This document shows, one piece after another, positions 2,305-40,300 of a stretch of DNA of 60,165 bases. The stretch's first letter is position 1; each line of letters opens with the position of its first letter. The DNA is taken from positions 1 to 60,165 of IMG/VR virus record IMGVR_UViG_3300043399_000886; one strand, given 5' to 3'. A program made the translations under genes and the position numbers. Source of the stretch: a virus (Duplodnaviria > Caudoviricetes). The notes beneath the pieces are model-generated. The model had not been told where the DNA came from and ran no database searches. It saw only the letters and a list, made by a program, of their open reading frames with translations.

Positions 2305-3093
2305 ATGGAACTGTTCAACCGCTCAGGCACCGCCCGCATAGCCAACGCCGGCGAACGCGGCCACCGGTACACCACCAAGTGCAGCCGCTGCGGCGGCGCT
2401 GGCGGCTCGAAGGCCTGGGAGCACACCGGCTACACCTGCTACCAGTGCGGCGGATCCGGCCTCGGCCCGACCAAGGTCGAGAAGCTCTACACCGCCGACG
2501 AGCTCGCCGTCCTGGACGCCCGCCTCGCGAAGGCCCGCGCCCGCCGCCAGGCCTTGATCGACGCCGAGACCGCACGCATCGCTGCTGAGCGTGCCGCCGC
2601 CCGCGACGCGTTCCTGGCCGGCAACACCGACACCCTGGCCAAGCTCGACGAGCTGGCCGCCGACGAGGTCTCCCGCGCCAAGCCCGACACCAGCCTGTTC
2701 TGGGATGACGTCCGCAACGGCATCGTCGAGCGCGCCCACATCAGCGAGCGCCAGGCCGAGATGATCAACACCCGCTACGCCGAGCTGCTGGCCCGCCGCG
2801 AGGCCGAGTCCCGCGCCCGCGAAGCCGGCCACCTGGGCCAGCCCGGCCAGCGCGTCAAGACCCGCGCCTGCGTCGTCGAGTGCCGGCACATCGGCATCGT
2901 CTCGCGCTACCCGCTGATCCACCGCTTCCTGGTCCGCCTCGAGACCGAGCAAGGTCACACCCTGGTGTGGTGGACCGGCTGCGGCAAGTACACCCACGAC
3001 GACTTCGTCGAGTGTGCGCTGACCGTCAAGGAGCACGGCGCCTTCAACGGAAAGCCGCAGACCACCGTGCAGCGCGTCACCTTCAAGGACTGA
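2305..3093 (+). CDS. Zn-finger (CxxCxGxG) protein with C-terminal OB-fold-like domain
   Basis: CSRCGGAG...CYQCGGSG; C-terminal LVWWT...TVKEHGAFNGKPQTTVQRV; AGGAG RBS. Confidence 0.75.
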   Translation: MELFNRSGTARIANAGERGHRYTTKCSRCGGAGGSKAWEHTGYTCYQCGGSGLGPTKVEKLYTADELAVLDARLAKARARRQALIDAETARIAAERAAARDAFLAGNTDTLAKLDELAADEVSRAKPDTSLFWDDVRNGIVERAHISERQAEMINTRYAELLARREAESRAREAGHLGQPGQRVKTRACVVECRHIGIVSRYPLIHRFLVRLETEQGHTLVWWTGCGKYTHDDFVECALTVKEHGAFNGKPQTTVQRVTFKD

Positions 3094-3095
3094 TC

Positions 3096-3305
3096 ATGCG
3101 ATTCTCGCGAGACCCGCTCATCGAGAAGGAGGCCCGCCGGCTCGAGAAGTCCGGCTGGGTCGCGCTCAACGGCGGGAAGCACAAGCGGCTGCGCAGCCCC
3201 GACAGCAAGCACACGATCACGGTCCCAGGCAGCCCGAGCGATCACCGCTCGGCCCTCAACTGGCTCCATCAACTGCGTCGCATCGAGCGCGCCACACAGG
3301 CCTGA
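3096..3305 (+). CDS. HicA-like mRNA interferase fold protein
   Basis: LEKSGW...GGKHKRLRSP...ITVPGSPSD resembles the HicA dsRBD-like fold with conserved His. Confidence 0.6.
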   Translation: MRFSRDPLIEKEARRLEKSGWVALNGGKHKRLRSPDSKHTITVPGSPSDHRSALNWLHQLRRIERATQA

Positions 3306-4810: not shown

Positions 4811-4998
4811 ACGCCATGAACACACCATGCTGCAACGGAAGCTCGTGCAATCAAGGCCGCGAGCCATGCCAGACACCTAACCTCTGTACGTCACCACATC
4901 CCAAGCTGGGGGTGATCGACATCATCGCGGTGGCCATCGCCGCCCTGTGCTTCGCATGCTCTGTGTTCATGCTGGCAAAGATCGCGGGGATCGCATGA
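4807..4998 (+). CDS. small Cys-rich membrane protein
   Basis: CCNGSSCNQGREPC followed by one hydrophobic helix; ATGA coupling. Confidence 0.6.
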   Translation: MNAMNTPCCNGSSCNQGREPCQTPNLCTSPHPKLGVIDIIAVAIAALCFACSVFMLAKIAGIA

Positions 4999-5324
4999 GC
5001 AAGCCGGGACGTCGCGCCGCTGACGGCGCCACCGGCGTCGAGCGCGTGTGCATCACCCTCACGCCGGCCGATCGCGAGACGCTGCGCGCGATGGGCGGGT
5101 CCGCTTTCGTGCGCCAGGCGATCCGCCAGGCCGCGGCGCTGGGCGACGATGCGAAGCGCTACGCCTGGATCCGCCAGCACTGCGAGCACATGGCCGTCGG
5201 CCGCGGCGGCAAGACCCTGCAGCTGACGGTCAAGGGCGACGAACGCGTCGCCGTCGAAGAGTCACCTCTCGACAAGCTGGTCGACGAGGCCATGCTTGCC
5301 ACGTCAAGCGATCAGAAACCCTGA
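4995..5324 (+). CDS. ribbon-helix-helix-like DNA-binding protein
   Basis: ERVCITLTPADRETLRAMGGSAFVRQAI; ATGA coupling. Confidence 0.55.
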   Translation: MSKPGRRAADGATGVERVCITLTPADRETLRAMGGSAFVRQAIRQAAALGDDAKRYAWIRQHCEHMAVGRGGKTLQLTVKGDERVAVEESPLDKLVDEAMLATSSDQKP

Positions 5325-25123: not shown

Positions 25124-25309
25124 GTGCGACGGGATGCCGACACCGTAGCATTGGCGATGTTCTTCGTCACACTGATCGTCGTCGGCTTCGGACTCGCGGC
25201 GGCCCTCATGCACGACGACGTGGTCAAGCTGCTCCTGGCGATGGCGTGGGCCGGCATGGCCTTGATGGCTGCCGGCTCCACGCTCTACGCGCTACTGTCG
25301 CTGCTGTAG
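25124..25309 (+). CDS. small two-TM membrane protein
   Basis: 61 aa, two hydrophobic helices, lone + strand ORF next to attP. Confidence 0.5.
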   Translation: MRRDADTVALAMFFVTLIVVGFGLAAALMHDDVVKLLLAMAWAGMALMAAGSTLYALLSLL

Positions 25310-28300
25310 CGCCTCCATCTGCCTGTTGAGCCGCGCCATCGTCTCGGTGATGCGGTCCTCGATCGCCTTCACCTGCTCGCGCGGCGCGCCCTGCTTGATC
25401 AGCTCGCGCTTGTCCAAGCGCAGGCGCTGGATCTGGCGCTCCGCCCGGCTGGCCGCGGTGATCAGGTAGGCCTCGCTGCGCTCGCGACGGAGCGCGTTGG
25501 CCTCGGCGTTCTTGCCGTCCTTCTGCAGCCCCTTGATCTCGGTCTCGAGCTCGTTGAGGCGGTCGGTGTTGGCGTAGAAGGCCGTGCCCTCGGAGGCCTG
25601 GCTCTTCGTGTCGCCGACGAAGCGGCCCAGCAGCGGCACCTTGTACGTCGGCAGCGCCTCGCCGCGCGCGGTCGACAGCACCGTCTGCTCGACCTTCGAC
25701 AGCTCCCGACCGACGCCGCCCGTGAGCTGGCCGATCAGGTAGTCGATCTGGTCGGGCGTGGGGCTGAACACGCCGGCCACGTACTTGTTGCCGCCAGACA
25801 GCGTGTTGACGGCCTCCGACACCGTCTTGGCCAGGCTCGTCGCCGTGTCACGGCCGAGCGCCGATCCGGGGATCGCCTTGTTGCTCGACTCGCGAGCGAT
25901 CGGGCGACCGGTCCAGTCGCGGTTCTCGGCGAGCGCCACCAGCGGGTCGAGAGCCGTAGGCGCCAGGGTCTGCATCGACAGGCCTGCGTTGCCGATCGGG
26001 TTGAACGTCTCGGCGAACAGTGAGGCCAGCGACAGGGCTCGCTTGTGCGGGTCCTTGAACCCAGACAGCGCGAACTCGGTAGCCACCCGGCCGATGCCCG
26101 GCAGGACGTGGAAGCCCAGCGGCATCGGGATCGTGACGTACTTGCCGCCGCCGACCGGGATGATCAGGCTGCGCTCGCGCACGAACTCCGGCGGATCGTC
26201 GTCGTTGAAGCCGGCCGCAGCCAGCGCCAGCGCCTGCATCGACCCAAGCATCATGCCGCCGTAGACGATCTTCTTGCCGGCGGCGCTCAGGCGCAGCGTC
26301 TTGGGCTTGCCGGGCTCCATCGTGAAGAGCGTCTGGCCCATCCGCGCCGTGCCCTGGACGCTCGCGTTGAAGAACGCGTACAGCGCGCCGGCCTGCTGGC
26401 TTACCTGGCCCTTGCGGTTGAAGTTCACCGTCAGGTTCTTGGCGACGCTCGCGGCCTGCTCCTTCGAGAGGCCCTTGTCGAGGCCTGCCTTGTAGGCCGC
26501 CAGACGCACGCCGTTCTCGAACGCCAGGTTGTAGTCGCCGATCCAGTCGAAGAGCCAGCGAGCACCCTTCATCGCCACCGACAGCGGGACCTTCAGCGCG
26601 CCGCCGGCGGTGAAGATCTTGCCCAGGCCCGAGTCCATCCACGCGTCAGGGTTCAGGGCCTTCTCGATGGCCTTGGCGCGATCGGAGCTCGTGCGGAAGA
26701 GCTCGCGGTAGCCGGTCTGCCCGCCGACCTCCTGGAACTCATCCCACAGGCGCGCCCACTGCGAGCCCGGGTTCCGACCCTTGCGGGCGGCGCGTGCGTC
26801 AGCGTAGACGCCGCGCAGGGCCGACAGCGTGTCGAGGCCGAACTTGCGCTTGTCGACGTCCTTGAGCGGCGTCGACGACAGGTTCAGCACCGCGCTCTGC
26901 ACGTCGCGCACCAGGTTGACCACGCCGAACACCGGGTTCCACTGCGTGTTCACGCTGGCGAAGTAGCGGCTGATCTTGGCCGAGACACCCAGCAGGCCCT
27001 CGAGGTCGCCGGCGTCCAGGTTCTTCAAAGCTCCAGCCATCCGCAGCGCGCGCGGGTCGTCCTCGTTGAAGACCACTGCGTGCTCGCGCACCACGCCGTT
27101 GGCGTCAGCGATCTTCGCCACGACCGCGTTAGCGCGGCTCTTGTACAGCGGGTCCGGCTGGTCCTTCACCAGGCCCGTGGCCGGGTCGAAGACGCGCTCG
27201 GTGGGCACCTGGTCGACGGTCCAGAAGTCCGGGTTCGGGTTCGACTGGGCCAGGCCGATCAGGGCCTGCGAGACGCGGTTCTTTTCGCCGCGGACGATCG
27301 CCTTCTCGCGCTGGATCGCGACGTTGGCCAGGATGTCGACGACCTTGCGCTTCGAGCCAGTGCGACCCTTCACCTCGCGACCCTTGATGCTGAAGCCTTG
27401 ACCCAGCCCAGGGCTGCCGTCCTTGTCCTCGCGCATCAGCGGGATGTAGTGCTGGTAGGCATTCTTCCAGCCGTCGACCGTGGCCTGCGACTCGAGCTCG
27501 TAGTCGACGTACAGCTGGCGGGTCTGCTCGATGATGCCGTCCACCTTGGCCGCGGCGGCCTCGAGCTTGGTGCGCAGGTCCGCCGGCAGCGTCGCCAGGT
27601 AGTTCTGCGCCTCGCCGGTTTCCATGCCGGAGCCGCCGTCCTGGAAGTCAGGGTTGCCCGGGTTGCGCTTGGCGATCGCCTCGTTCGCTTCCTTGGCGTG
27701 CCGCGCGTGCAGGAACTCCTCGAGGTCGGCCATGCTCAGGCCATCCTTCGAGAGCTGCTCCAGCAGCGGCGTGAGCTCCATGTTCACGAAGTCCTCGGTG
27801 CGCTTCGCAGCGCGGCCGTGGTAGAGCTCCTCCTGGAGGTAGACGTTCAGGTCATCGGCGATGGCGCCGGAGGCTTCACGCAGCGACTCGACGACGCGCT
27901 TGACGTCGACAAGTTTGTCCTGAGCCTTGTAGACGAAGTCGTCCCACTTCGACGCGCTGGGCGAATCCCACACGGCGCCGGTGGCAGTGCGGCCCGTGCT
28001 GCGGCGGATGTCTGGATCAGCAGGATCGAAGGTGCCGCGGTTGCCGATGGCGGACTTGATCTGCTCGGGGTAGAAGGCGATCCACTGATCGTTCTGCTCT
28101 TCTTCGGTGTCGCCGTTTGGGTCTCCGGGAACATAGATACCGTCGTATCCAGATTTCTTCAGGCCATTCACGAAGCCAGTGGTGCCCTCTTCGTCATACT
28201 CGGACCCAAAGACCTGGATCATCATCCGCTCGTCGTTGTCCATGAAGTATGGCTTGCGGATGGCCAAGTACAGCGGCATGACAGAGCCGCCCTCGCCGTA

Positions 28301-31300
28301 GCTGCTGGCCACATCCGGCGAGGCGCTGGTGAATACTCCAAGCTCGTCGGCGCGCCGAACGCGGTCGAAGTCGAACACCGAAAAATCACCGCTTGTCCCG
28401 TGATACACCACCAGCGGCTTGCCGTCGGCATCCACCACCTTCGAGTCCCCGAACCACGCCTTGAACTCAGGCGTGTCGGTGACGCGCTCGCGGCTGAACA
28501 GCGGCAGGCCTTCGGCGACCTTCTCGCGCATGGCGTCGGTGACGTCGAAGCCGGGTTGGGCGCGCAGTGACGTGTCCGGGTTTGACTCGACAATCCGCAG
28601 CTTTTTCTGCGGGTACATGCCTTGAATGCTCGGCAGCATCCGCTCGGCCTCAGCCCTGGTGCGGTACGCCATCAAACCGCTGTCACGCTCATCCATGATC
28701 CACACGTTGGATGGATCGTAGCCAGCGGTGTCAGTCGAGATGCCGACTCGCACCTCGCTCATCTGACCACCACCCACCTTCGGCAGCAGCTTCTTCAGCG
28801 CCGTGGGCACGATGGTGTCGTAGAAGGTCTTCATGCCTTCGCCGCCGACCTTGAGGTCGAGACCGGCGATGCGGTGCATGCCGTATTCGTTTTTCGGCGC
28901 GTCAATCAGACGTTGCGCCAGCTCTTTACCCACAACGTCCGCGACGTCATCGTCGGACGCAACGTCACGCGTGACGGCGTTGGATCCGTCTTTGCGGCCA
29001 ATGATCACTCCGCCGCCTGCGCTCTTGCGGTCGTACAGAACTTCGTCGAGTTGCTGGCTCAGGTCATACCGATCCGCAGACTGCTCTCCGTTGACGAACG
29101 CCACGCGGTCGTAGCCGCCCTCTGCGGCCATGACCATCACGCGCTTGAGGGCAAGGTTGAGCCAGCCTTCGGTCTTGGTGACGAAGGGGGCAGCGGGGAT
29201 CTTGTCGCTGCCGCCCTCCATGTCAAGGTCGCGCCCTGCGCGCATGCGCGCGTACTCATCGCCGCGGCCAAGCTCCTGCGCCATTTGCGGAAACGGCATG
29301 TTGATGCCGCGACGCCCAGCCTCCTCTCGGCTCTCCCCGGCCTGCACGCGCTGCTCGATGTAGTCGTCCAGCAGCTTGTCCGCAAAGGCGTCGTATTCCT
29401 TTCGGGACACGGGCTTGACGTCAGACTCGCTGGCAAACCCCTTCTTCTTCCCCTCCTGCCCCCAGTCGCTCTGCAGCTCCTCGACGAACAGCACGCGCTT
29501 GCCGTCGGCATCGGTGCGGTCGTTGACGCGGATGTGAGCGAGGACGTTGGGCTGGTCCCAGTGGGTGGAACGGTAAGCGCCTTCCTGCGCGCTGTCGATG
29601 CCGCCGGGCATCTCGTAGAATCGAGCTGACGGTGTCACTCCGTCGAACTCTCCTGGGCTGAGCATGCGCTCCGTTTCGATATCTCCATCGTCAAGCGGGT
29701 AGCGAGCGTAGACAAATCGGCTCTCGTCGGCCGACAGCTTGATTGCTTCTTCGCGCCCAATCTCGCGCTCATCCCGCTTAACGGGCAACGTCAGCAGCAC
29801 CTCGCGGTAGTTCTCGCCGCCGGGGAGGGTGTATTGGCTGTACTTGGTGCCGAGAGCACCCGTCTCGCCCTGCTCCGCGTACTCGTTCATCGCCTCCGCG
29901 ATGGAGAACATGCGATTGGCGCGCTCCGTATCGCCCCTCGCCCGGAACTGGCGAGCGATGCGCTCCTCGCGCTCAGCCTCCGCGATCCACCCATCGGTGG
30001 TTGTCGGCTGCCTGCGTGACGAGTTCTCGAAGTGCCGGCTGAGAATCTCTGGCAAGCCGCGCGGCCCGCCCAGCACCACCTCCTCGACCTGCACGCCACC
30101 GCGCTCCAGGTACTCGGCCACGGCCTCCTTGCTCACCTTGCCCTGCTGCAGGTCGAGCCAGTCGTTGATGCCGGACCACTCGATCTCTTCGGCCTTGGCG
30201 ATGCCCTTGTTGATCAGGCCCTTGATCTGGGCCTTCCAGGCGCCAGCCGGAGCCTGCTTGGTCTGCATGGCATCGATGCCGCGGGCCAGAGCGCTGACGT
30301 AGCCAAGCGGCGAGCGCTCGGGGCTGCGCAGGAAGCTCTCGTTGTCGAGGCTGAACGCGCCAGAGTTGCCGATCGCACTCTTGACGTACGTCGGCTTGAA
30401 CGACACGTAGACGTTTGACGGCGTCGCTCCGCGACCGTCCGGGCGCGAGATCGAGTCGCGCAGGTCCTTGTAGATGATGCCGTCGTATCCCTGCTGCTTG
30501 GCCCACTGGTTGATCATGTCGGTGTTCGACATGGGCAGCCCGTAGCCCGGCACGCCGCGCGTGTCGATGCGGTTGAACGAGGCGCCGCGCGCGTTGATCA
30601 CGAGCGGGTTGTCCATGCGCACGTACTGGCGCTGCACGTTGCCGCCAGGCTGCAGGGCCTTGTTGCGGGCCTCCTCGTACACGCCAGCGTATTCGTCGGC
30701 GACGAGCGGCTTGCTGCTCAGGAAGTAGCCCGCGCTGGAGATCGCGGTGTCGACGCGGTCGAAGTCGCGCTTCGTGCCGTGGAAGCCCTCGACGACCACG
30801 GGAGAGCCCGTCTCGAACTTGTAGAGCGAGGCCACTTCCGCCGGCACGACTGTGTGCCCGCCGGTCCACGCCGTGAAGTTCTGGTCGCGCTCGGGGCTGC
30901 GGCGGATGTCGGGGTTCCAGGAGAACCTGCCATTGTTGTCGGTCGCGCTCTTGATCTGCGGCGCGCTCCAGACAACGACCTCGGTCAGCTTGCCGTTGTT
31001 GTACTTCGCGATCCCGTCGTAGCCTTGCTCGATCGCGCGCTTCTTGATCTCGCTGCCGAGGTAGCCGTACTTCTCGTACGCGTTCTCGGCCATGCGCTGA
31101 GCCTTTTCGCGCGCCACGCCCAACTGCACAAGAGCGTCGACGGCAGGGTCGTACGCGTCCTTGCCGTCCTTGCCGATCTCGAGCGGGCGGGTGACACGAG
31201 CGTAGAGCTTGTTGACCTTGCCGCCTTGCGTGGATCCGACGTTGGCGTAGTCCTCTGCGATCTCCAGGTCCGGCGTCATGTAGAAGCCGACGCCCAGCGC

Positions 31301-34300
31301 GCCGCGGCTGCCGACCTTCGGCACAGACTTACCTTCGGACGCGCTTGCGAAGTCGAAGCCTCCGTGGTACAGGACCAGCGGCTTGCCGCCGGGCTCGCCG
31401 TTCTCTGTCATCACCGACTCGCCGAACCAGCGCCGGAACTCCTCGGTGCCGGTGACGTCGCGCGCCGGGCTGGCCTTGGTGTCGAAGCCGTACTTCTTGG
31501 CGTCGAACGGCTGCGCGCGCGGCAGGTCGGCGACGCCGGCCGCCTTGTTGATCGCCGCGACCTCGTCATCAGACAGGACGCGCGTGACCTTCATCGACCC
31601 GCCGATCAGCCAGTTGCCCGTCATGTTCGGGTTGGTCTTGTAGCGGTAGAAGCCGTCGACCGGGACCTGGTCGGTGATGTGCGCCGTAGCCGGATTCGGC
31701 TGGCCCTTCACCGCGCCCGTTGCGGGGTTGGTGATCTTGTACGGGACGGCCCGCTTCTCGGCCTCGGCCTGCCAGTCGCGGTCGGCGGCCATCTCGATCT
31801 CGGCCCACACCTGGTTGGCTGGCCGCACCGAGGGCAGCGTCTTGACCTTGCCCGACTCCTCGTCGAAGCGCGGCGCCGGGTTGCTGCCGATGTGCGTGGC
31901 GATCGGCAGGTCGCCCGCGTGCCAGCCGGGGCGCAGAGCCAGGGGCCCCAGCTTCGACTTGACCTGCGGCTTGCCGGTCTTGGTCGGCTCAGCCTGCTGG
32001 CCGACCTCGGCGTCCAGCCACGCGCCCATCTTGACGGGCTCGTTGGCGCTGACGAACAACGGGAACAGCTGGCCCGGCTTCTTCGCGTCGACGCGGAAGA
32101 GCTTGTAGGCCTTGACGGTCTTCTTCGGCGGCTCGCCGCGGCGCGGGCTGAACTTGATGTCGCCCTCCGGGCCCGCGGTGGTGCCGGCCTCGGAGACCGG
32201 GATGTACTTGCCGCGGAAGCGCTTCTCGCTCCACCCGCCGATCAGGCCTTCGTCCTGCATGCGGTCGAAGAACGCCGCAGCCGGCTCGGTGACCTCGTCG
32301 ACCAGCACGTCGCTGAGGTACTCCTCCTGCAGCCAGCGCAGCATGTCGCGGCCGCGCACAGCCTTGGAGGACGTGATCGCCTGGATGCGGATGTTGCCGT
32401 TCTTGTCGCGGCCGTAGCGGATGTGGGCCTCGTCGTCGAACTCCGCGTACTTCGCGCCCGGGATGTCGCCGTCGTCATCGACGACCGAGCGCGGCTGGAT
32501 GCCAGAGGCGGCGGCTGAGCCAGCATCCGAGCTCCACACGCCGTCCACGTCGGGTCCGAACCCGAGGCCCGTCAGGACCTGCTCGATCCGAGCGCGCGCC
32601 TTCCAGTTGCGCGGTGTCTTCGGCTCGATGAGGAGGCGCACCCCGCGGGCCCTTGCGAGGTCCGCCACGCGGCGCACCGTCGTGCGGAAGAGCTGCGGGT
32701 CGGCCTCGAGGTTCTTGGTGCCCGTGATCGCGATGTCGGCTCCGTCGTCCTCCAGGTTGAAGGAGGCTCCGGCGACAGGCGCCGCATCGTAGTCGGCCTG
32801 GAGCGCGGCGGCGTCATTCACTGCGGCCGGATCGAACCCGGGCAGGTACGAGCCGCGGTTGCCGAAGACGTAGACGTTGTCGGTCTTGTTGAGGTACAGG
32901 TTGCCGCGCTTGAACGTCAGCAGCAGCTGGTCTGCCGCGCCGGCGTAGTCGGCACCCTCGGACTTCTTGTTCGTGCCGCCCAGCGGGCCGAACAGGTCGT
33001 CCTTCTCATAGAACCACAGCGCGGCCTGGATGTCGGCGATGGTGATCGTCTGGCCGGTCTTGCGACGGATGATCTTCTGCGCGGCCTCGGCGGTGTCCTG
33101 CTGGAACGAGCGCTCGAGGTCGGTGCGCGGCGCAGCGACGGCGCCCTCGCGCCCCTCGACCCACACCTTGCCCGCGCGGCGCATGTCGGACTTGAGCTTG
33201 TAGCCGCCCTTGCGGAAGTCCTCTTCGAGCTTGGCGGCGAACTCCAGGGCCTTGTACGGGTTGTCGAGGATCTCCTCGATCTGCTCCCGCGTCATGCCCT
33301 CCAGGTCGGGCCCGAACTCCGGCATGACGGCCGCATCGCCGCGGACGGACTTCGGTTGCACCGGGCCCACGAGGGTCCCGTTGACGTGGTTGTACTCGGC
33401 CACCAGGGCGGAGATGAACTTCTGGTACTGGTCGGCCTCGAGAGCCGGCGCATGCACGAACGAGTAGCCCAGGATGCGGTTCCACGAGCGCGAGAACCAC
33501 AGGTCCGCGGTGAGCGTGCTGTAGTCGCCATGCAGGTTGTTGATGAACGAGCCGATCTTCGGCCCGAACACCATCCACCCGGTGACGATCTGGTCGGACT
33601 TGCCTTCGACCTGCAGCGGCGAGCCGCTGTAGTACAGGGTCTTGTCCTCGCGCAGGCGCTTGTTGATGTCGCCGACTCGGCCCTTCGTGTTGAAGAACCT
33701 CCGCATGGCGTCGTAGCCGTTGCGGTTGATCAGGTCGTGCAGCTTCAGCAGGTTGTTCTCGATGGCGCGCGTCTCGCCGCCAAACGTGCCGCGCAGGATG
33801 CGCACCGCGTTGGGCAGAGTCATCTGGCCGTTGCGCACCAGGTTGTAGACGCGGGCCCCGTACACTGAGTTGCTGAAGACGTCGTTGCCCTGGCTGGTGA
33901 TGCCCCAGATGGCATCGAACAGCATCTCGGCATCGGGGTCCGTCGCGAGCTCGGGGAAGATCGACTGGTAGTCCTTCTTCGCCGCCTTCAGCGCGCGGTC
34001 GTACCAGCCGATCGCGGACTTGCCGCCGCGCGGGCTCTGGAGGTGGAAGATGACCTCCTCGGCGATGGCCTCGGCAATGACCTTCTTGGCGCGCTCAGAG
34101 TAGTCGCCGGGTTCGATCAGGCCAGCCTGGGCGGACCTGTTTTGCAGGGCCCAGAGGATGTCGCTGACGGTGACCTTGCCGTTGGCTCCGGTCGGCGTGA
34201 TGTCGAGCTTCTCTTCGCCCGACGCGATTGAGACGGTGGACTTGCTGCGCCCACTCCTCGGGATCAGCGCGTCGCGGATCAGCTCTCGCTGGGCGTCGGA

Positions 34301-37300
34301 GAGTCCGAACTTGTCGGCGAATCGCTGTACGGCAAATCGATAACCCTCGGCTCCGACTGCCTTTGCGTACGGGACAACAAGAGCATCGACGGCCCTTCGG
34401 AATAGACTGGATGGTCCGGGCTCGCGATCCGAAAGCCACGCTGCCGGGCTGCCGCTTCCATCTCCTGCCTGGACATACGTGTTGGCTTCATTGAGGTCGC
34501 TCCGGACGAAGAACAGGTCGCTGTATTTTAGACCTGCGGATTGCTGGATGTCCCATACCTGGTCGATGAAATCGAGGTACTGCTCCCCCGGCCCGAAGTA
34601 CAGGAACTTGACGGCTCGGCCGTCCTGCGTGGTGCTGTAGTCGAGGCCCGCTGCGCGCGCCGCCTCGATCACCTTGTCGAGCTGCTTCTTCGTCAGCTTG
34701 GTGTCGTTGCCGACGTAGGCCGCCGGCGTGCCGGCCATGTCGTCCTCCGGGCTCGGCTTGTAGACGACCGTCGCGTCCTGGGCGAACGCGAAGCCCAGCA
34801 GCTTCGACAGCTGGGTGGCCTGGTCGTAGGTCATCGAGTCGGCGACCAGAGCGTAGCTCGGCTCGGGGTTGCCCAGCCAAGAGCCCTGGATCGGCACGAC
34901 CCGCAGGCCCTTGATGCCGAGCGCCGAGTCCGCGAGCTCAGCGAACTTCTTCGACGACAGGATCTTCTGGACCGCCGGGCCGATCTTCTCGAGCCGCGGC
35001 CCGAACACGGCCGGCGCCTGGATGGGCGGCGGCGTCAGGTCGTTGCGCGTGAAGTTCCAGCCGAACTCGCCCGGCTTGCCGCCGACCACGACCGACATGC
35101 GGTTCTCGTCGGCTGCGCTGCGATCAACGCTCAGGCGGATGTCGTCGCTCGAGACGCTGAAGGTGCCGCCGTTGAAGTCGGCGCTCTTGACCTGGTTCGG
35201 GTCGAACGCGACGAACACGTTGCCAGGCAGGCCGGAGTACCCCGGGCCGCCGCCGTCGTCGATGACGCTGCGGATGATGGCGCCGTCGTTGTTGTAGCGC
35301 CGAGCCTCACGCACCACGCCGTCGGTGGTCGTGTAGTGGTCGTCGGGCGCCTCCACCGTCCCGCCGATCTCGTCGGCGATTTTTGTGGCCTCGTCGGTCT
35401 CGAAGTGCCCGCGGCCGTCCTCGGCGTAGTAATGCTCGCCGTTCGCATCCAGGACGATGTTCTGGTGCTCGCGGGACCCGCTCCAGTTTGCGCCATCGAA
35501 GTCCTCCTCGGACGGGTTGCGGAGATTGACGAACAGCGCGTAGATGCCGACGTTGCGGCCGCCCTCCTCGTAGTTCTCGAGGTCTTCGGCAGTGAAGTCC
35601 TTGGCCCGGCCGCGGCGCGCGTAGCTGCGCGCCATGCCGTAGTCGGCGCTGGCGAAGATGCCCAGCTCGCCGCGCCGATCACCGGTGGGCCGCTTGAACT
35701 CCGCAAAGCCCCCGGTCTCGGTGCCGTGGTAGACCACCAGCGGCTCGCCATTCTCGTCGACAGCCTTCGAGACCTCGCCGCGCGCGTCGCTCCAGACGCC
35801 GCCCTCCACGCCGGCGAACTTCTCCCAGTCGCCGAACCACTGCTTGAACGAGGGTGTGCGCACCTGCACCCACTGCCGCTCGCTGAGCTTCGTGGGCTGG
35901 CCGTTGGGCGCCTTCATCCACTGGTCGGTGTTGCGGTACTGGGCCTCGACCTGCGCGTACTCGCTGGCCGCGCGCTGCACGTCCTCGCCGCGCACCGGGC
36001 TGAAGCGGATCGATGAGCCGATGCGCTCCATCTCGGCGTTGGCCTGGTCGCGGCTCGTCTCGGGGACGATCAGCGTGCCCGAGCGCAGGCGCGCGCCAGG
36101 GATCGACGTGACGTCGACGCGCTGCATCTCGGCGCTCATCAGGCCGCGCTTCAAGTCCTGGGGTACGGCCTTCGGCGGCACCGGGACGGCCGGCGTCGGG
36201 ACGGTCTCGGCCGGCATGTTGGTCGAGGCCTTGCCGATCACCACGCCGATGCCCTGGCCGGTCGGGTGGTTCTTCACCCAGTAGCCGTCGAAGCCGGCGT
36301 CGAGGATGGCCGACTCGGTGCCGTTGATGTCGGCGCCGTTCCAGAGCTTCAGCGGGTCAGCCTTGGCATCGTAGAGCTTGGGCAGCTTGACCTGGTGCGC
36401 CACGCCACCGACGCCAGCCTCCGGTCGCACGCCCTGACCCTCGTCGATGTAGAAGTAGACGCGGCTCTTAAGGCGGCCGTCGGTCGTCTCGCGCAGGCGC
36501 TCGGCCTCTAGGCCCTTGAGGCCCTGGCCGTAGAAGGCGCCATTCAGCGCGGCGCGCGGCTGGCGGCTGAAGTGGATGCCGAACTCCGGCGACGGCGCCT
36601 CGGCGCGCTCAGTCGACTTCCTGATGTCCGGGTTGGCGGGATCGAACTGACCGTTGTTGCCGATGGCGGACTTGACTTGGGTCGGCGAGAGCACCGCGAT
36701 CTCGCGGTACTTGCCGGCGTCGCGCAGGTTCTCGTTGGTGCGCGCGATGGCGTCGTACCCGGCGCGCTCCATGATCTTGCGGAAGACGTCGGGCGCCTCG
36801 GCGCGCATGGTCGACTTCTTGATCTCGGCCTTGGCGCGCTGGACGTCCGCCGCCAGCTTGGTGCTGGAGGTGTTCGTCTGCTTCATGTAGCGCGCCATGC
36901 CGTCACGCAGCGCGCCGCGGATCGCGTCGGTGTCGCGCACGAAGCGCTCAGCGTTGAACCCGCGCTGACCCTGGAACATCTCGGTCAGGCGATTGAGCAT
37001 CTCCTGCACCGTGGCAACGACCTTGGCGATCACCGACGGCGCCTTCGGTCCGGCGTCCTGCTGGATCCTCGTGAAGACGTCGGACCAGAAGTTGCCGCTG
37101 CGCATCTGGTCGCCGTTGAGGTCGCTCACGAGCTCCTCGAGCTCGCTGTCGTTCAGGTCGATGTCGGGCTGCTCGAGGATCTTGCCGCCCGGCAGCTTCT
37201 GCAGCGCGGCGTTGGCCTCGGATGCCAGGCGGAACGAGGCCACCTGCTTGCCGCTCTCGTCGGCCAGGACGTACTTCCCGAAGTAGTCGTCGCGGAACCC

Positions 37301-40300
37301 CTTGGCGTTGCTCACCCGGGCGCGTACGACATCGGCGACGGCGCGGTAGGCGTGAGGCGCCTCGACCTTCATCAGGTGGACGAGCTCGTGGCCGAACACG
37401 GCCAGCGGCGAGACGGACGAGGACTCGTTCAGGTAGATCGTGTCGGGCAGGCTCGGGCGCACGAAGCCGTCGTCGCTCGTGCCGTTGAAGAACACGACCT
37501 TCTTGTTGAAGAGCCCGGCCACGCCGCGGATGAGCCTGGCCTGCGACTTCGTGATTGCGCGGCGGCCTTCGGTGGCGCCCGCCGGCTGCTCGGGGAACTT
37601 CGACTCGTCGGCGACGAACAGCGGCTTGCCGCCGACCTTGAGAATCTCCACGCCCGGCGCGAGGTCCGGAGCGACGGTGCGAGCGACGTCCTCGACGGCG
37701 GCCTGCGACTTCGTGCGATCGGTCTTCAGCCAGGACTTGAACTCCTCCATCGTCATGGCCTTCATGGCCTTGCGCCGGCGCGGGCCGGAGCCGTCGGAGA
37801 AGTGCTGGTCGTAGATGCGCTCCGCGGCCGCCTGGTCGGCCACGCCCAGCACGACCTTGTGCTCGTCGAACGAGCCGTCGTCCTTGTACTGGTCGAACAC
37901 GAACACCGGGGAACCCGGGCGCGCGTTCTCCGGCAGGTAGACGTCAACCTGGTCGCCGTCGGCGCCCTCGGTGCGGCGCACGAAGCCGTAGTGGGCCTTC
38001 ATGTCGACGGACCACTTCGTGCCGTCCGGCGCGGTGCCGGAGCGGGTGGACCCGACCGGGTTCTCGACGGCGACCTTCAGGCCATCGAACGTGACGTCGC
38101 CCTTCGCGTACTGGCCAGCCTTGGCCTGTCCCTCGGTGGGCTGGGGCGTGTCGTTCAGCGGGCTCGTGGCTGCGGTCTGGGCGCGGGTGTTGATGAAGTC
38201 CGCGACGGCCCGGCGCGCGAACTGCGAGTCGGCCATGCCGTCGAGCTTGAACTCCTGGCGCTTGGTCGGGTTGATGAAGAAGAACCCGTCCTCGCGGCGC
38301 TCGACGCGATCGAAGCCCAGGGACGCGAGCTGGCCGAGCATGGCCATGCGCTTGCGGCGGAAGGCCGGCGCGGTGTCGCCGGGCGCGGCCGGCGGGATGG
38401 CGACCTGCGGCGCGGCGATCTGCTCGAATGGGGCGGGAGTCTCGACGGCGGGCGCCTCGGCTGCCGGGGCTTCTGTTGCTGGCGCAACAGTTTGTTGTCC
38501 TGCGGGCAGCGCAAAGTCGTCGACCGGCGGCAGGGATTCCTCCTGCGCGAGCTGGTCCAGGCGCAGCTGAGCGGCATCCGCGGCGGTGCCAGCCGGCGCC
38601 ACCGAGCGCGCAGGCATCCTGCCAGGCGCTGGATCGCCGGCCTGGCCGTCCTCGGTCTCGAGTCCCTGCAGGCGCGCGGCGGCCGCATCGGAGGCGGCCT
38701 GACCTTCGGGCGTGGTGCCCACGGTGGGTGCCGGCGGGACCGGACGCGTCAGAAGCGCAGCGGAGGGGCCTGCGGCTTGCGCAGGGGCCGCAGGAGCGTC
38801 GATCGGGGCCTGGGTGGGGGCAGAGTACCTGCCGATGATCTCGAACGCCTGGCGGGCGAAATCGCCCCGCGTCGCGGCCGGGATAGCCGGGTCACGAGCC
38901 TGGGCAGCCAGCTCGACCAGCGAGCGGCGATCGGGCTCCGACATCTGCAGGCGCAGGTCGCGATCGTTCAGCGCGTTCTCGATGGCGCCGAGCTCCGGCA
39001 CGACCGGCGTGACCGGCGGCTCGGGAGCGTTCTCCTTGGCCCAGTCGATGGCGAGCTCGATGCGGCCCAGGGCCTGCTCGCGCGTCGCGGCCGCGGTGGA
39101 TCCGCTGCGGACGATGGCGAGGTCGTTCAGGAACTGCTTGGGCTGGTACGGCGACTCGTCGGAGCGCAGGGTGCGCAGCACGCCCAGGTCGCGGATCTGC
39201 TGCTCCAGCGGGGCCAGGCGCTCGGCGATCGGGTCGACCGGAGTCTCGGGCTCAGGCTGGGGCTGGACCGGCGGCATTGCATCGACGCCCGCCACCGCGG
39301 CGCTCGAGAGTGGCGAGTTGCCCTCCGCGGCCTTGTCCTGGACAGGCTTCGGCGCGGCCGGCTTCACCGGCGGGCTCGACAGCGCACCGGCCACACCGCC
39401 CGTGGCCTTGCCGACGGCGGCGCCACCGATGAAGTCTCCGAGCGTGTCGCGCGTGGCGTTCTCGAGCGCGGGCTTGCCCTGGCCGATGTTCTCGCCGATG
39501 TTCTGGCCGACCTTCTCCGACGTCTCCTGGCCGCCTTCCATGATGGCGCCGCCTGCCGCGCCGACCGCGGTGCGCACCGGCAGGGACCCGGAGACGCTGC
39601 CGAGCGCGCGGGAGACGCCCCGCTTGAGGATGATGCCCTCGATGACCTTGGCGTTGAACGCACCGCCCGCGGCGCCGGCGACCGAGGAGATCGCGCCCGC
39701 CCAGCGGGCCGAGCTGTTGATGACGGAGTCGCGCGCAGCCTGCTCGTCGCCGGTGGCCTGGAAGGCCTCAGCGTACGCGGGAACCTCAGCAAGCAGCTGC
39801 TCGTGCGTCATGCCGCTCATCTGCTCGCGCAGGCTCTCGCGCACGTCGCCCGCCGCGGCGCCGCCGGTGACGGCTGCGTTGGTGCTCGCGCCCAGCACGG
39901 ACATCGCACGCTGCGCGCTCTTGAGCTCGGTGGCGAGCTGGGCGACCTTCGCTGCGTCGCCCGCCTCCTTGGCCGCCTTGAGGGCGCCGGAGAGCTTGCT
40001 CACGCGCCCAGCCTGGCCGACCACAGGGATGAGCATGGTCGACAGCGAGCCCAGTCCGTTGACCAGCAACATGCCCCACCCCTGCGCGCTGTCGGGCAGC
40101 TCGACGCTTGAGGTGTCGCCCTCCAAAACCTTGGCGACGTCACCCTTGACGGTGGCGTCCTCGCGGGCCTGCTTGCCGCCCTCGGTCATGCTGTTGCGCA
40201 GCGCGTCGGAGGCGGGCTTCAGGAGGTTCTTGCCCTCGTACTGCTCGGTCCCGGTGGCCGAGTTGGCGACCGCGGCCATGCCTTCGCCGATGAACTGGCC

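Follow-up and report, generated by a model that had tools for sequence, protein, structure and literature searches.

Modules of a giant polyvalent protein

The window analysed, a stretch of 60,165 nucleotides of phage DNA, carries on its minus strand (25292..40930) a giant ORF of 5212 aa, defined from the ORF listing together with Pfam and PHROGs matches, and all of the protein features described below lie on this same strand. Pfam recognises SLT, InPase, ART-PolyVal and LPD38 domains in it, and PHROGs adds a DarB-like family along with large families that have no assigned function, so that on its sequence matches the product is a phage polyvalent protein. Its content comprises SLT, InPase, an HExxH peptidase, four ART-PolyVal copies, one ART fragment, other modules and LPD38. 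The same phage codes for RecT-like and RecE-like recombination proteins.

The SLT lytic transglycosylase domain (residues 22-135; 40526..40867; PF01464, E 1.4e-12), which NCBIfam transglycosylase models match too, is followed by the InPase domain (residues 934-1069; 37724..38131; PF18823, E 4e-43) and by the HExxH peptidase-like domain (residues 1115-1362; 36845..37588). Behind the peptidase and a short ART fragment lies a module that we call domain X (residues 1443-1639; 36014..36604), which is modelled by AF2 with high confidence, gave zero matches in the Pfam scan, and weakly resembles in structure two RES-type toxins, MbcT (Z 6.3) and NatT (Z 5.9). ART-PolyVal copy 1 (residues 1725-1924; 35159..35758; PF18760, 73 bits) then precedes a region of ~990 aa with no assigned family (residues 1938-2923; 32162..35119; no Pfam or NCBIfam match), which probably holds more than one domain and within which homology-block ends bunch near residues 2640-2690. 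The next module (residues 2932-3149; 31484..32137) is portable and widespread, with 1468 representatives at E<=1e-3, and it aligns with positions 2-192 of the 194 in phrog_30118. ART-PolyVal copies 2 (residues 3182-3336; 30923..31387; 76.3 bits) and 3 (residues 3374-3526; 30353..30811; 57.8 bits) are followed by a ~600-aa module, also without an assigned family or Pfam match, that ends in 'GLPLF' (residues 3540-4141; 28508..30313) and is conserved widely among relatives, with its end covered by 73 homology blocks. ART-PolyVal copy 4 (residues 4167-4301; 28028..28432; 92.3 bits in Pfam) has a model with pLDDT 86.7 that matches PARP catalytic domains (Foldseek, E about 4e-3), and the conserved C-terminal region (residues 4315-5212; 25295..27988; phrog_14770, E 1.4e-198), which includes LPD38 (residues 4911-5101; 25628-26200; PF18857, E 4e-41), has relatives in 349 phage records, among them Burkholderia and Ralstonia phages.

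In its giant size, virion-gene context, ART-PolyVal, InPase and LPD38 domains and zincin-like peptidase, the protein resembles the polyvalent proteins of phages and conjugative elements described by Iyer, Burroughs, Anand, de Souza and Aravind in 2017, the text of which notes mosaic architectures and multiple ART copies (PMC5512222). A second comparator is gp69 of the temperate Bcep22-like podovirus JC1, a DarB-like protein of 4515 aa that is likewise very large, is encoded where the virion module ends, and was detected in purified virions by mass spectrometry with 51 unique peptides (PMC9144972); the match of our protein to a DarB-like PHROG and its C-terminal relatives in Burkholderia and Ralstonia phages provide the link. 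As described in that text, the peptides came from an entire gel lane, so that the analysis is silent on the size or cleavage of gp69. The HExxH family had no tblastn match in 50,697 GenBank phage records, and the Bcep22-like podoviruses are therefore without a peptidase of the kind found here.

Ten junction octapeptides and their two halves

The original prediction, made from the letters of the DNA, placed ten related octapeptides at apparent domain borders of this protein and read them as a recurring linker. All ten occur where they had been placed, within the single 5212-aa ORF. Junction 1, EIKKSTMR (residues 1369-1376; 36803..36826), lies directly behind the peptidase domain and has the consensus KKSxDR in relatives, and junction 2, DIRKSTER (from residue 1435; 36605-36628), closes the ART fragment. 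They are followed by junction 3, SIRFSPVR (residues 1640-1647; 35990..36013), which is RIGSDIRFS(x)xR in relatives; junction 4, DIRLSVDR (residues 1930-1937; 35120..35143), with S and R conserved in relatives; and junction 5, DIKFSPRR (residues 2924-2931; 32138..32161), which joins two non-ART modules and corresponds to NIRWSPRR, IKFSRRR and LQFSRRR in relatives. Junction 6 is DTKASPAR (residues 3150-3157; 31460..31483; KYGFDxxxSxxR in relatives), junction 7 DIRRSPER (residues 3341-3348; 30887..30910), junction 8 SFLRSPER (residues 3532-3539; 30314..30337), where S and R are again conserved in relatives, junction 9 LPLFSRER (residues 4142-4149; 28484..28507), whose S stands in 40 of the blocks aligned without gaps, and junction 10 DIRRSTGR (residues 4307-4314; 27989..28012). 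As predicted, the series starts right behind the HExxH domain: residue 1362 is the last of the profile match, the first motif begins at 1369, and the pattern has no match further upstream.

The AF2 models place the motifs at module borders, and their confidence breaks agree with the ends of Pfam and PHROG matches and of homology blocks. In the model of residues 1091-1660 the Ser of junction 1 closes a helix, and from two residues on pLDDT is under 50; at junction 3 it is below 50 from two residues past the Ser, and junction 2 lies entirely in low confidence. In that of residues 4135-4325 the corresponding break at junction 10 starts one residue past the Ser. The Pfam ART matches stop 5-6 residues short of the motifs, and the phrog_30118 match fills the interval between junctions 5 and 6; the matches to the 1468 representatives of this module likewise begin and stop only a few residues from these two junctions. 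Parts of the motif are themselves modelled as ordered, for example PDIRRS with a pLDDT of about 80; S-R-E-R, which precedes ART copy 4, is modelled as a short helix in a block of pLDDT 81, so that some of the motif may be part of the next module.

We compared the motif counts with 2000 shuffles of the 5212-aa protein. Bare S-x-x-R is weakly enriched (32 observed against 21.1 expected; 22 of the 2000 shuffles reach 32), and the fuller patterns [ITFPL][RKL]xSxxR (12 occurrences, 0.98 expected) and D[IT][RK]xSxxR (6 occurrences, 0.015 expected) were equalled in 0 of 2000 shuffles, a generous test since the patterns were drawn up after the ten motifs had been seen. Two extra pattern matches (residues 3490 and 4745) fall inside modules. 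Five of the ten motifs (residues 1435, 1930, 3341, 3532 and 4307) are tails of paralogous ART-PolyVal copies, so the ten are not independent. With a scoring matrix made solely from the ART tails of other proteins, four of the ten score strongly, at 20-29 bits (for example 20 bits at junction 4 and 29.4 at junction 7), against a 95th percentile of 11.8 for the shuffled maximum; the motif at residue 2924 reaches 10.2 bits and the remaining five stay below 6, these weak motifs being supported instead by S and R conserved at the corresponding places in relatives and by the S..R found ahead of ART leaders, described below.

The octapeptide has two halves. Where it is present, P-D-I-[RT] forms the C-terminal end of the preceding ART-PolyVal domain, and stand-alone ARTs (n=22, from contigs of 10 kb or more) retain ..PDI[TR], with S at +4 in 8/22 and SxxR in 0/22. 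The S-x-x-R half is junction-specific and is seen only where another module follows: ART tails in giant proteins carry S in 111/130 and SxxR in 64/130 cases, and S-x-x-R precedes ART and non-ART modules alike. Only the second half of the proposed linker is a junction element in its own right, the D-I-R being domain tail. The invariance claimed for S-x-x-R applies within the 5212-aa protein; in the ART tails of relatives (n=120), S is kept in 108/120 and R in 64/120.

The paralogy of five motifs, the low matrix scores of five and the mild enrichment of bare S..R would fit a series that is a by-product of duplicated ART domains and chance matches, a reading that we consider very improbable. It is largely refuted by the conservation of the non-ART junctions at corresponding places in relatives, by the lack of SxxR in stand-alone ARTs, by the S..R found up to 16 aa upstream of ART leaders that follow non-ART modules (38/82, vs 2/82 for random 16-mers), and by homology-block ends that land on S or R. 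Another reading concerns the residues themselves. ADP-ribose is usually accepted by Ser and Arg, and basophilic kinases act at sites that R-x-S resembles, so with every ART copy flanked by an exposed motif, Ser and Arg might be modification acceptors (for ADP-ribosylation by the neighbouring ARTs, or for phosphorylation), or the motif a docking signal for packaging or ejection, uncleaved in either case. Against this, non-ART modules too are linked by the motif (junction 5 is an example) and SxxR is missing from stand-alone ARTs; we regard this explanation as improbable.

Gain and loss of modules at the junctions

Comparison with relatives shows that gain and loss of modules falls on the motifs, as had been proposed when they were read as recombination joints. 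Homology blocks drawn against 119 relatives start within 15 aa of a motif in 239/392 cases and end there in 214/370, where 9.7% is expected, and the block ends peak on S (43) and on R (43). At the junction between the peptidase and domain X, 10 of 15 relatives have a direct join, 2 a full ART and 3 other inserts. In the present protein this place holds the 66-aa C-terminal ART-PolyVal fragment that ends in junction 2 (36605..36802), missing from 10/15 relatives, which covers Pfam positions 103-140 of 140 with 25.7 bits, below the cut-off of 31.2, but which matches the other ART copies by BLAST; AF2 confidence is low there. It is flanked by direct repeats of 52 nt (repeat family D16), with copy A (36594..36645) covering junction 2 and copy B (36792..36843) covering junction 1, at a spacing of 198 nt and with 79% identity. 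Relatives sometimes carry a duplicated junction on both sides of an inserted module, and the same module is found elsewhere between alternative "GG"-type junctions; in 149 proteins the flanks are GG/GG in 58 cases, SR/SR in 12 and SR/GG in 1.

That the octapeptides are a standardised junction for module exchange is thus well supported. A related arrangement is known from polymorphic toxins, in which short conserved peptides such as VENN of CdiA and the core-end motif of Rhs proteins lie between a constant part and exchangeable toxin modules, with presumed roles in the exchange and, for Rhs, in cleavage. There each protein has a single border and the systems are those of bacterial secretion, whereas here ten borders of a different sequence lie in one phage protein.

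Exchange may be all that the junctions serve. They could be uncut connectors, seams for independent folding of modules in one tethered chain, which are alike by recombination within a lineage that carries them, an explanation that is possible but doubtful. It is favoured by the insertion of modules with duplicated junctions, by homology blocks that stop on S or R, by the like-type flanks, as within-lineage exchange predicts, by the phage's own RecT-like and RecE-like proteins, and by the partial order of the motif in the models (the PDIRRS stretch and the SRER helix). Against it, the 52-nt pair is the sole long repeat, nucleotide identity at the junctions being otherwise short, and specific residues are rarely kept in plain flexible linkers. 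Moreover, the Ser codons belong to both families (TCG in 2 junctions, AGC in 8), and S and R are still kept where the modules are only 30-40% identical, which argues for selection on the peptide rather than on the DNA.

The HExxH domain and possible cutting of the array

The region ahead of junction 1 is, as had been predicted, a conserved zincin-type candidate peptidase adjoining the first motif on its upstream side. HELVH (residues 1181-1185; 37376-37390) lies within it, HExxH being kept in 46/46 BLAST-aligned relatives and in 77/77 profile matches (chance expectation 0.019 occurrences), and the invariant columns H, E, H, E, D, G and W include the downstream E1266 and D1270. AF2 orders the domain as a helix, three strands, the HExxH helix and the E/D helix. 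The region had no Pfam match even at E<=1 and no NCBIfam match, and sequence and structure searches against solved structures gave no confirmation of a zincin fold. It almost never stands alone, doing so in 1 protein of 157-501 aa.

The HExxH family is present in 33/42 S..R-type proteins and in 0/45 of the GG type, raw counts that ignore shared ancestry and include many short or partial GG-type proteins, and it always stands before the first junction. In the remaining 9/42 S..R-type proteins the polypeptide itself carries no such peptidase. HExxH is missing from some giants whose motifs are perfect, and P0008, P0036 and P0039 contain none whatever; at locus L034 a giant without the peptidase, of the P0039 type, follows immediately downstream of one that bears it, and the peptidase-less giants look like second genes beside a peptidase-bearing gene, an arrangement seen in this one locus.

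Giants with perfect junctions but no HExxH would suit cutting by a different protease, of phage maturation or of the host, as would the GG-type junctions of polyvalent proteins that have no processing peptidase by Pfam (15 scanned), since some junction types would then need an outside enzyme. There is precedent in phages P1 (DdrB and DarA), T4 and phiKZ, where head-packed, host-delivered proteins, comparable in this to ours, are cut at short consensus sites. T4 gp21 cuts Alt and internal proteins, and gp175 of phiKZ is likewise a head maturation protease; in both, a separate head protease acts at other sites and removes targeting peptides rather than separating a string of enzymes. An outside protease is nevertheless unlikely here: a non-exhaustive scan of 26 ORFs of the window against PHROGs turned up no maturation protease, and the HExxH family tracks the S..R type, in L034 from the neighbouring gene.

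This tracking is also what an uncut connector leaves unexplained, a reading on which the HExxH domain would have another role, such as acting on host proteins or helping packaging. We tentatively propose instead that these standard junctions, which divide an array of effector modules, are recognised and cut by the HExxH peptidase. The recognition site would consist of the conserved Ser and Arg, placed in a seam that is exposed and flexible, and its reader would most likely be the zincin-type domain directly ahead of the first junction. Once assembly is complete, or once the protein has been ejected into the host, the peptidase would divide the array into individual enzymes, releasing ADP-ribosyltransferases, possibly an NAD+-targeting toxin-like module, and further modules. 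In phages with an array spread over two genes, it may act on the neighbouring protein too. As counterpoints to this cutting reading, five of the ten motifs fit the ART-tail matrix badly, and the SRER ahead of ART copy 4 is modelled as helical.

The original prediction, which is partly supported as a whole, was right that processing by metallopeptidase domains had been proposed for polyvalent proteins, as it is in the text of Iyer et al. 2017 (PMC5512222), citing the processing of P1 DdrB and DarA. According to the same text, N4 virion RNA polymerase, ArdC and TraC1 bear such peptidase domains yet travel full-length, which counts against cleavage and in favour of an uncut connector. The main text of PMC5512222 has 0 occurrences of the word 'linker', no named cleavage or junction motif was found in it, and no description of the junction motif was found in the literature searched. 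New with respect to Iyer et al. 2017 are the S-x-x-R that follows the ART tail and is absent in stand-alone ARTs, the second junction type, and insertion at the junction, which may in addition be the cutting site of the peptidase, a role for which it is a plausible candidate.

The giant polyvalent protein and its setting

All ten octapeptides fall within a single ORF on the minus strand of the window (25292-40930; 5212 aa), at exactly the coordinates that the original prediction had claimed for them; they are referred to here as junctions 1 to 10 (residues 1369, 1435, 1640, 1930, 2924, 3150, 3341, 3532, 4142, and 4307). Several unrelated effector and enzyme domains share this one chain. Pfam places an SLT transglycosylase at residues 22-135, an InPase at residues 934-1069, and LPD38 at residues about 4911-5101, and four ART-PolyVal copies score 73, 76.3, 57.8, and 92.3 bits, above the PF18760 cut-off of 31.2, with a further ART fragment (residues 1377-1442) falling below it at 25.7 bits; a HExxH domain occupies residues 1115-1362. 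Of the H-Y-D active-site residues of ART domains (Iyer et al. 2017), the His is discerned, that of '(V)YHG' being invariant in the ART alignment A1 (H43) and visible in all four copies. The PHROGs matches of the ORF are to a DarB-like family and to large families of unknown function. The protein is also encoded by a phage, the window being a virus record, and has virion genes for neighbors. Upstream of it, and on its own strand, are genes for a tail fiber (1782 aa), an internal virion protein (928 aa), a structural protein of the virion, acetyltransferases, and lysis; directly downstream is an integrase, and other parts of the window hold RecT-like and RecE-like genes. It is, on both counts, a polyvalent protein in the sense given in the available text of Iyer et al. 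2017 (PMC5512222). Terminase, portal, and major capsid found no match in a partial scan of 26 window ORFs against PHROGs, which may reflect an incomplete record or divergence of these genes. According to the available part of the source, JC1 gp69 is virion-associated by mass spectrometry, a whole gel lane having been analyzed (PMC9144972), and by analogy with that protein the window protein may be carried in the virion and passed on to the host cell.

Two stretches of the chain are without family match. One, at window 38231-39250 (residues about 561-900), is a long Ala/Pro-rich low-complexity stretch between the N-terminal SLT region and the InPase. The other, at window 32162-35119 (residues 1938-2923), runs for about 990 aa without an internal S..R-type junction, and BLAST block ends clustered near residues 2640-2690 make an unmarked domain border there probable. 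Related giant proteins also occur in two cultured phages, Bacillus phage Dartukuta (L001:6035-18646), in which the C-terminal region is 59% identical to that of the window protein, and Pseudomonas phage F116, whose p60 (L017:10441-15390) has the ART tail 'PDILFSRS'; these two giants carry other HExxH motifs ('LHELQHxIQ' and 'LHEMIHGQQ') and lack the S..R series.

Junctions at module borders and their two halves

We consider it well supported that the octapeptides define a junction, that this junction sits at module borders, and that it has a role in module exchange. The proposed placement at domain borders holds for the junctions tested, as judged from breaks in AF2 confidence and from the ends of Pfam and PHROG matches. 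AF2 models cover residues 4135-4325 (121-row alignment, pLDDT 86.7) and 1091-1660 (20 rows, pLDDT 82.0), and so junctions 1-3, 9, and 10; positions within each modeled segment are prefixed q. In the first segment confidence is below 50 at q1-5 and q178-191 only, and at junction 10 the residues PDIRRS (q172-177) are still ordered in the model, with the drop beginning at the residue after the Ser. In the second segment confidence is below 50 at q1-5, 285-291, 301-325, 344-353, 493-498, and 556-562; the helix preceding junction 1 (q279-286) stops at the Ser at q283, and at junction 3 (q550-557) confidence is lost from q556, such that at junctions 1, 3, and 10 the predicted pLDDT falls below 50 within 1-2 residues past the Ser. 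Junction 2 is wholly of low confidence, as is the entire ART fragment that separates it from junction 1. At junction 9 the opening residues belong to a block of low confidence (mean 47), and SRER forms a short helix in the model, within a block whose mean pLDDT is 81; this suggests that the downstream half of the motif, here ahead of ART copy 4, can lean on the next module. The models thus predict an exposed or flexible motif at the modeled junctions, less clearly so at junction 9. Pfam ART matches end at G-x-F, 5-6 residues ahead of the motif, and phrog_30118 (194 positions) spans residues 2937-3149, the space between junctions 5 and 6. Domain X (residues 1443-1639, window 36014-36604), which follows junction 2, is modeled with confidence by AF2 and is matched by no Pfam family; its alignments to RES-type toxins that target NAD+ are weak, with Z 6.3 (rmsd 3.9, 124 aligned) for MbcT (6fkg_B) and Z 5.9 for NatT (8qnl_C), and there is a Foldseek row to 6fkg_A at E 0.28, and from its model it may be a further NAD+-using effector.

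The bare S-x-x-R is only mildly enriched in the protein (32 observed vs 21.1 expected, with at least 32 in 22 of 2000 shuffles). Longer patterns stand out further, [ITFPL][RKL]xSxxR occurring 12 times vs 0.98 expected and D[IT][RK]xSxxR six times vs 0.015 expected, counts reached in 0 of 2000 shuffles in either case, though these tests are generous since the patterns came from the ten motifs themselves; two extra matches (3490 and 4745) fall inside modules. Nor are the ten motifs independent, because five of them end paralogous ART pieces: segment-against-segment BLAST identifies the pieces ending at residues 1442, 1937, 3348, 3539, and 4314 as ART-PolyVal paralogues, the first being a 66-aa C-terminal fragment.

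Comparison with relatives divides the motif into two halves. From 1229 candidates scored, 209 reached E<=1e-3, and the best 120 of these, including the query, give 119 other giants. In this best 120 of 209, the 134 ART tails run Q[IV]KSAxGNxGxF, a few residues, and then (N)PDI[RT]xS, and the 120 tails outside the window have D in 108, I in 106, R in 85 or T in 23, S in 108, and R at +7 in 64. A stand-alone ART set was drawn from the best 120 of 537 short-protein matches, of which 25 on contigs of at least 10 kb were kept as likely complete and 22 have a recognizable core. These proteins retain the tail as far as PDI[TR] and often end 1-8 residues past it, with S next in 8 of 22 and SxxR in 0 of 22 among the matches listed; their N-termini begin (Q)TETPEFKxWF, without S..R. 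We infer that P-D-I-[RT] is part of the ART domain and that S-x-x-R is added when another module comes next. Upstream of ARTs that follow non-ART modules, S..R lies within 16 aa in 38 of 82 cases, vs 2 of 82 random 16-mers, and the looser S-x(1-3)-R in 54 of 82, vs 4 of 82. Five of the window motifs score below 6 bits on the ART-tail matrix and are kept at the matching junctions of relatives, in which the junction after the peptidase domain has the consensus 'KKSxDR', that before ART copy 1 reads 'RIGSDIRFSxxR', those before and after the module at residues 2932-3149 read 'I[KRQ][FWY]SxRR' and 'KYGFDxxxSxxR', and that before ART copy 4 reads 'GLPLFSRxR'. A short motif of the kind that would border the products of a polyprotein is present at all ten junctions and conserved at matching places in relatives.

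A second junction type emerges from the 2932-3149 module (window 31484-32137), which is very widespread: it has 1468 representatives at E<=1e-3 and, among the best 150 of these, is 55-74% identical and found at any position of proteins of 219-4627 aa. Matches to it begin and end a few residues from junctions 5 and 6. One set of proteins flanks the module as in the window, and another places it between '...AKGGSV(K)EPKK' upstream and 'GFAxGGxVAPEEW' downstream, with ART tails there reading 'PDITKAKGGSV'. The two flanks agree in type within a protein, being GG/GG in 58, SR/SR in 12, and SR/GG in 1 of 149, the other 78 having at least one flank that is of neither type or not assessable. Proteins of the GG type are polyvalent as well, with ART-PolyVal, GNAT, VanY, PBECR5, and ASCH domains among the 15 scanned.

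Module exchange at the junctions

The suggestion that module exchange maps to the motifs is borne out by the ends of alignment blocks and by a series of inserts at the joint between the peptidase and domain X. BLAST of the query against the 119 relatives (best of 209) yields 446 blocks. Inside residues 1250-4450, a motif is no more than 15 aa away from 239 of 392 block starts and from 214 of 370 block ends, with 9.7% expected, and the ends peak exactly on two residues of the motif, the S and the R (43 each). Repeated ART paralogues make all these counts larger. Fifteen relatives have both the peptidase and domain X. In 10 of them the two are joined directly, by 11-22 aa with a 'KKSxDR'-type motif, in two (P0002 and P0047) a complete ART lies between two junctions, and in three there are other inserts. 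The window has a 66-aa ART remnant at this joint, and its flanking junctions form a 52-nt direct repeat that is 79% identical (36594-36645 and 36792-36843). This C-terminal ART fragment (window 36605-36802), predicted to be disordered, is probably a decayed cassette.

We also considered whether homologous recombination might act on long nucleotide repeats shared by all junctions, and rejected this idea, as only junctions 1 and 2 share an extended repeat and junction DNA elsewhere has only short identities. Of the ten junction Ser codons two are TCG and eight are AGC, and these two codon types, together with the shortness of the DNA identities, indicate that conservation is at the protein level.

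The HExxH domain and the question of cleavage

The HExxH region is a candidate zincin-like metallopeptidase, for which proteolysis is predicted from sequence and model. HExxH, here HELVH (residues 1181-1185), has a chance expectation of 0.019, and all 46 BLAST-aligned relatives keep it; by profile, the family is present in 77 of 120 giants (best 120 of 209), with HExxH in 77 of 77, and H1181, E1182, H1185, E1266, and D1270 are shared by all 14 sequences of an alignment. In the AF2 model the HExxH lies on one helix (q85-100) and a Glu on a later one (q171-185), and the modeled order of secondary structure, with helices at q38-50, q85-100, and q171-185 and strands at q54-59, q65-68, and q71-78, fits the zincin layout described in the available text of Iyer et al. 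2017 (PMC5512222). The region has no counterpart of this sort in Pfam at E<=1, and NCBIfam gives no match to it. Its profile finds nothing significant among PDB sequences (the sole match is 1npc neutral protease, E 0.83), and a Foldseek search of the PDB with its model finds nothing at E<=0.001, the weak rows (E 0.1-0.85) including lethal factor, BepA, PprI, selecase, and FtsH. A VIA structure search with the segment model gives a list dominated by the long helices at q184-290, an ESM Atlas search returns unnamed viral clusters only, a related-locus search returns ART-tail matches only, and tblastn against 50,697 GenBank phage records gives no match. The domain is nearly never alone, with one protein of 157-501 aa.

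Our preferred mechanism, held tentatively and at somewhat less than an even chance, is that the junction is the cutting site of this peptidase. Among 269 proteins the peptidase family occurs in 33 of 42 with S..R-type junctions vs 0 of 45 with the GG type, counts that ignore shared ancestry and include many partial proteins, and S follows the ART tail core in 86 of 89 cases in giants with the peptidase family vs 25 of 41 in those without. The arguments for cutting are this co-occurrence, the conservation of residues in a flexible seam, the absence of the motif from stand-alone ARTs, and the lineage-specific types. Against it stand the lack of correction for ancestry in the counts, the giants that lack HExxH, and N4 virion RNA polymerase, ArdC, and TraC1, which carry such peptidase domains and yet travel intact, according to the available text of Iyer et al. 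2017 (PMC5512222); the last of these points also speaks for a junction that is simply an uncut connector, which we think somewhat less likely than cutting by this peptidase.

The giants without HExxH also speak for cutting of the junction by another protease, a reading against which the peptidase co-occurrence counts and which we regard as quite improbable. Three such relatives, P0008, P0036, and P0039, have fine junctions. For P0039 the gene order of an IMG/VR locus that is a 69% relative (L034:5234-19291) provides an explanation, since there two giant polyvalent genes, of 2783 and 1902 aa, share one reading frame with a single TAA between them; the first carries the peptidase and S..R junctions, and the second begins a few codons past the stop with 'MATFTN', to be compared with the N-terminal starts 'MAKFTN' of P0039 and 'MAFTSN' of P0008. 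In an arrangement of this type the peptidase would act on the neighboring protein. Across 79 IMG/VR loci the peptidase is present in 3 of 16 that are junction-rich, the loci being clipped by contig ends and the junction pattern loose.

Cutting by the HExxH peptidase could be extended to the broader and more doubtful proposal that the polyvalent proteins of phages are genuine polyproteins and carry a cleavage code, in which each lineage has a junction 'dialect' matched to its own processing enzyme and the same junction is the docking point for new effector modules. S-x-x-R would then be read by the GHExxH peptidase and the '...AKGGSV...' type by another enzyme, and, if this is true, any module landing between two junctions would automatically be set free in the host as a separate enzyme. 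Both this type of protein and the idea that it is processed are already known. We found no description of the defined junction, the split between ART tail and junction-specific half, the second type, or the cassette series in the available text of the literature on polyvalent, ART-PolyVal, and DarB-like proteins, which for Iyer et al. 2017 is main text. That peptidase domains process the polyvalent proteins carrying them has been a proposal since 2017 without a testable site, and the defined junction gives exact positions; were it a cleavage code, it would be reusable to deliver several proteins from one gene. The junction also offers a simple rule for dividing giant, mostly unannotated proteins into modules, which aids the search for new anti-host enzymes, and the junction series records the domain-by-domain rebuilding of such phage proteins.
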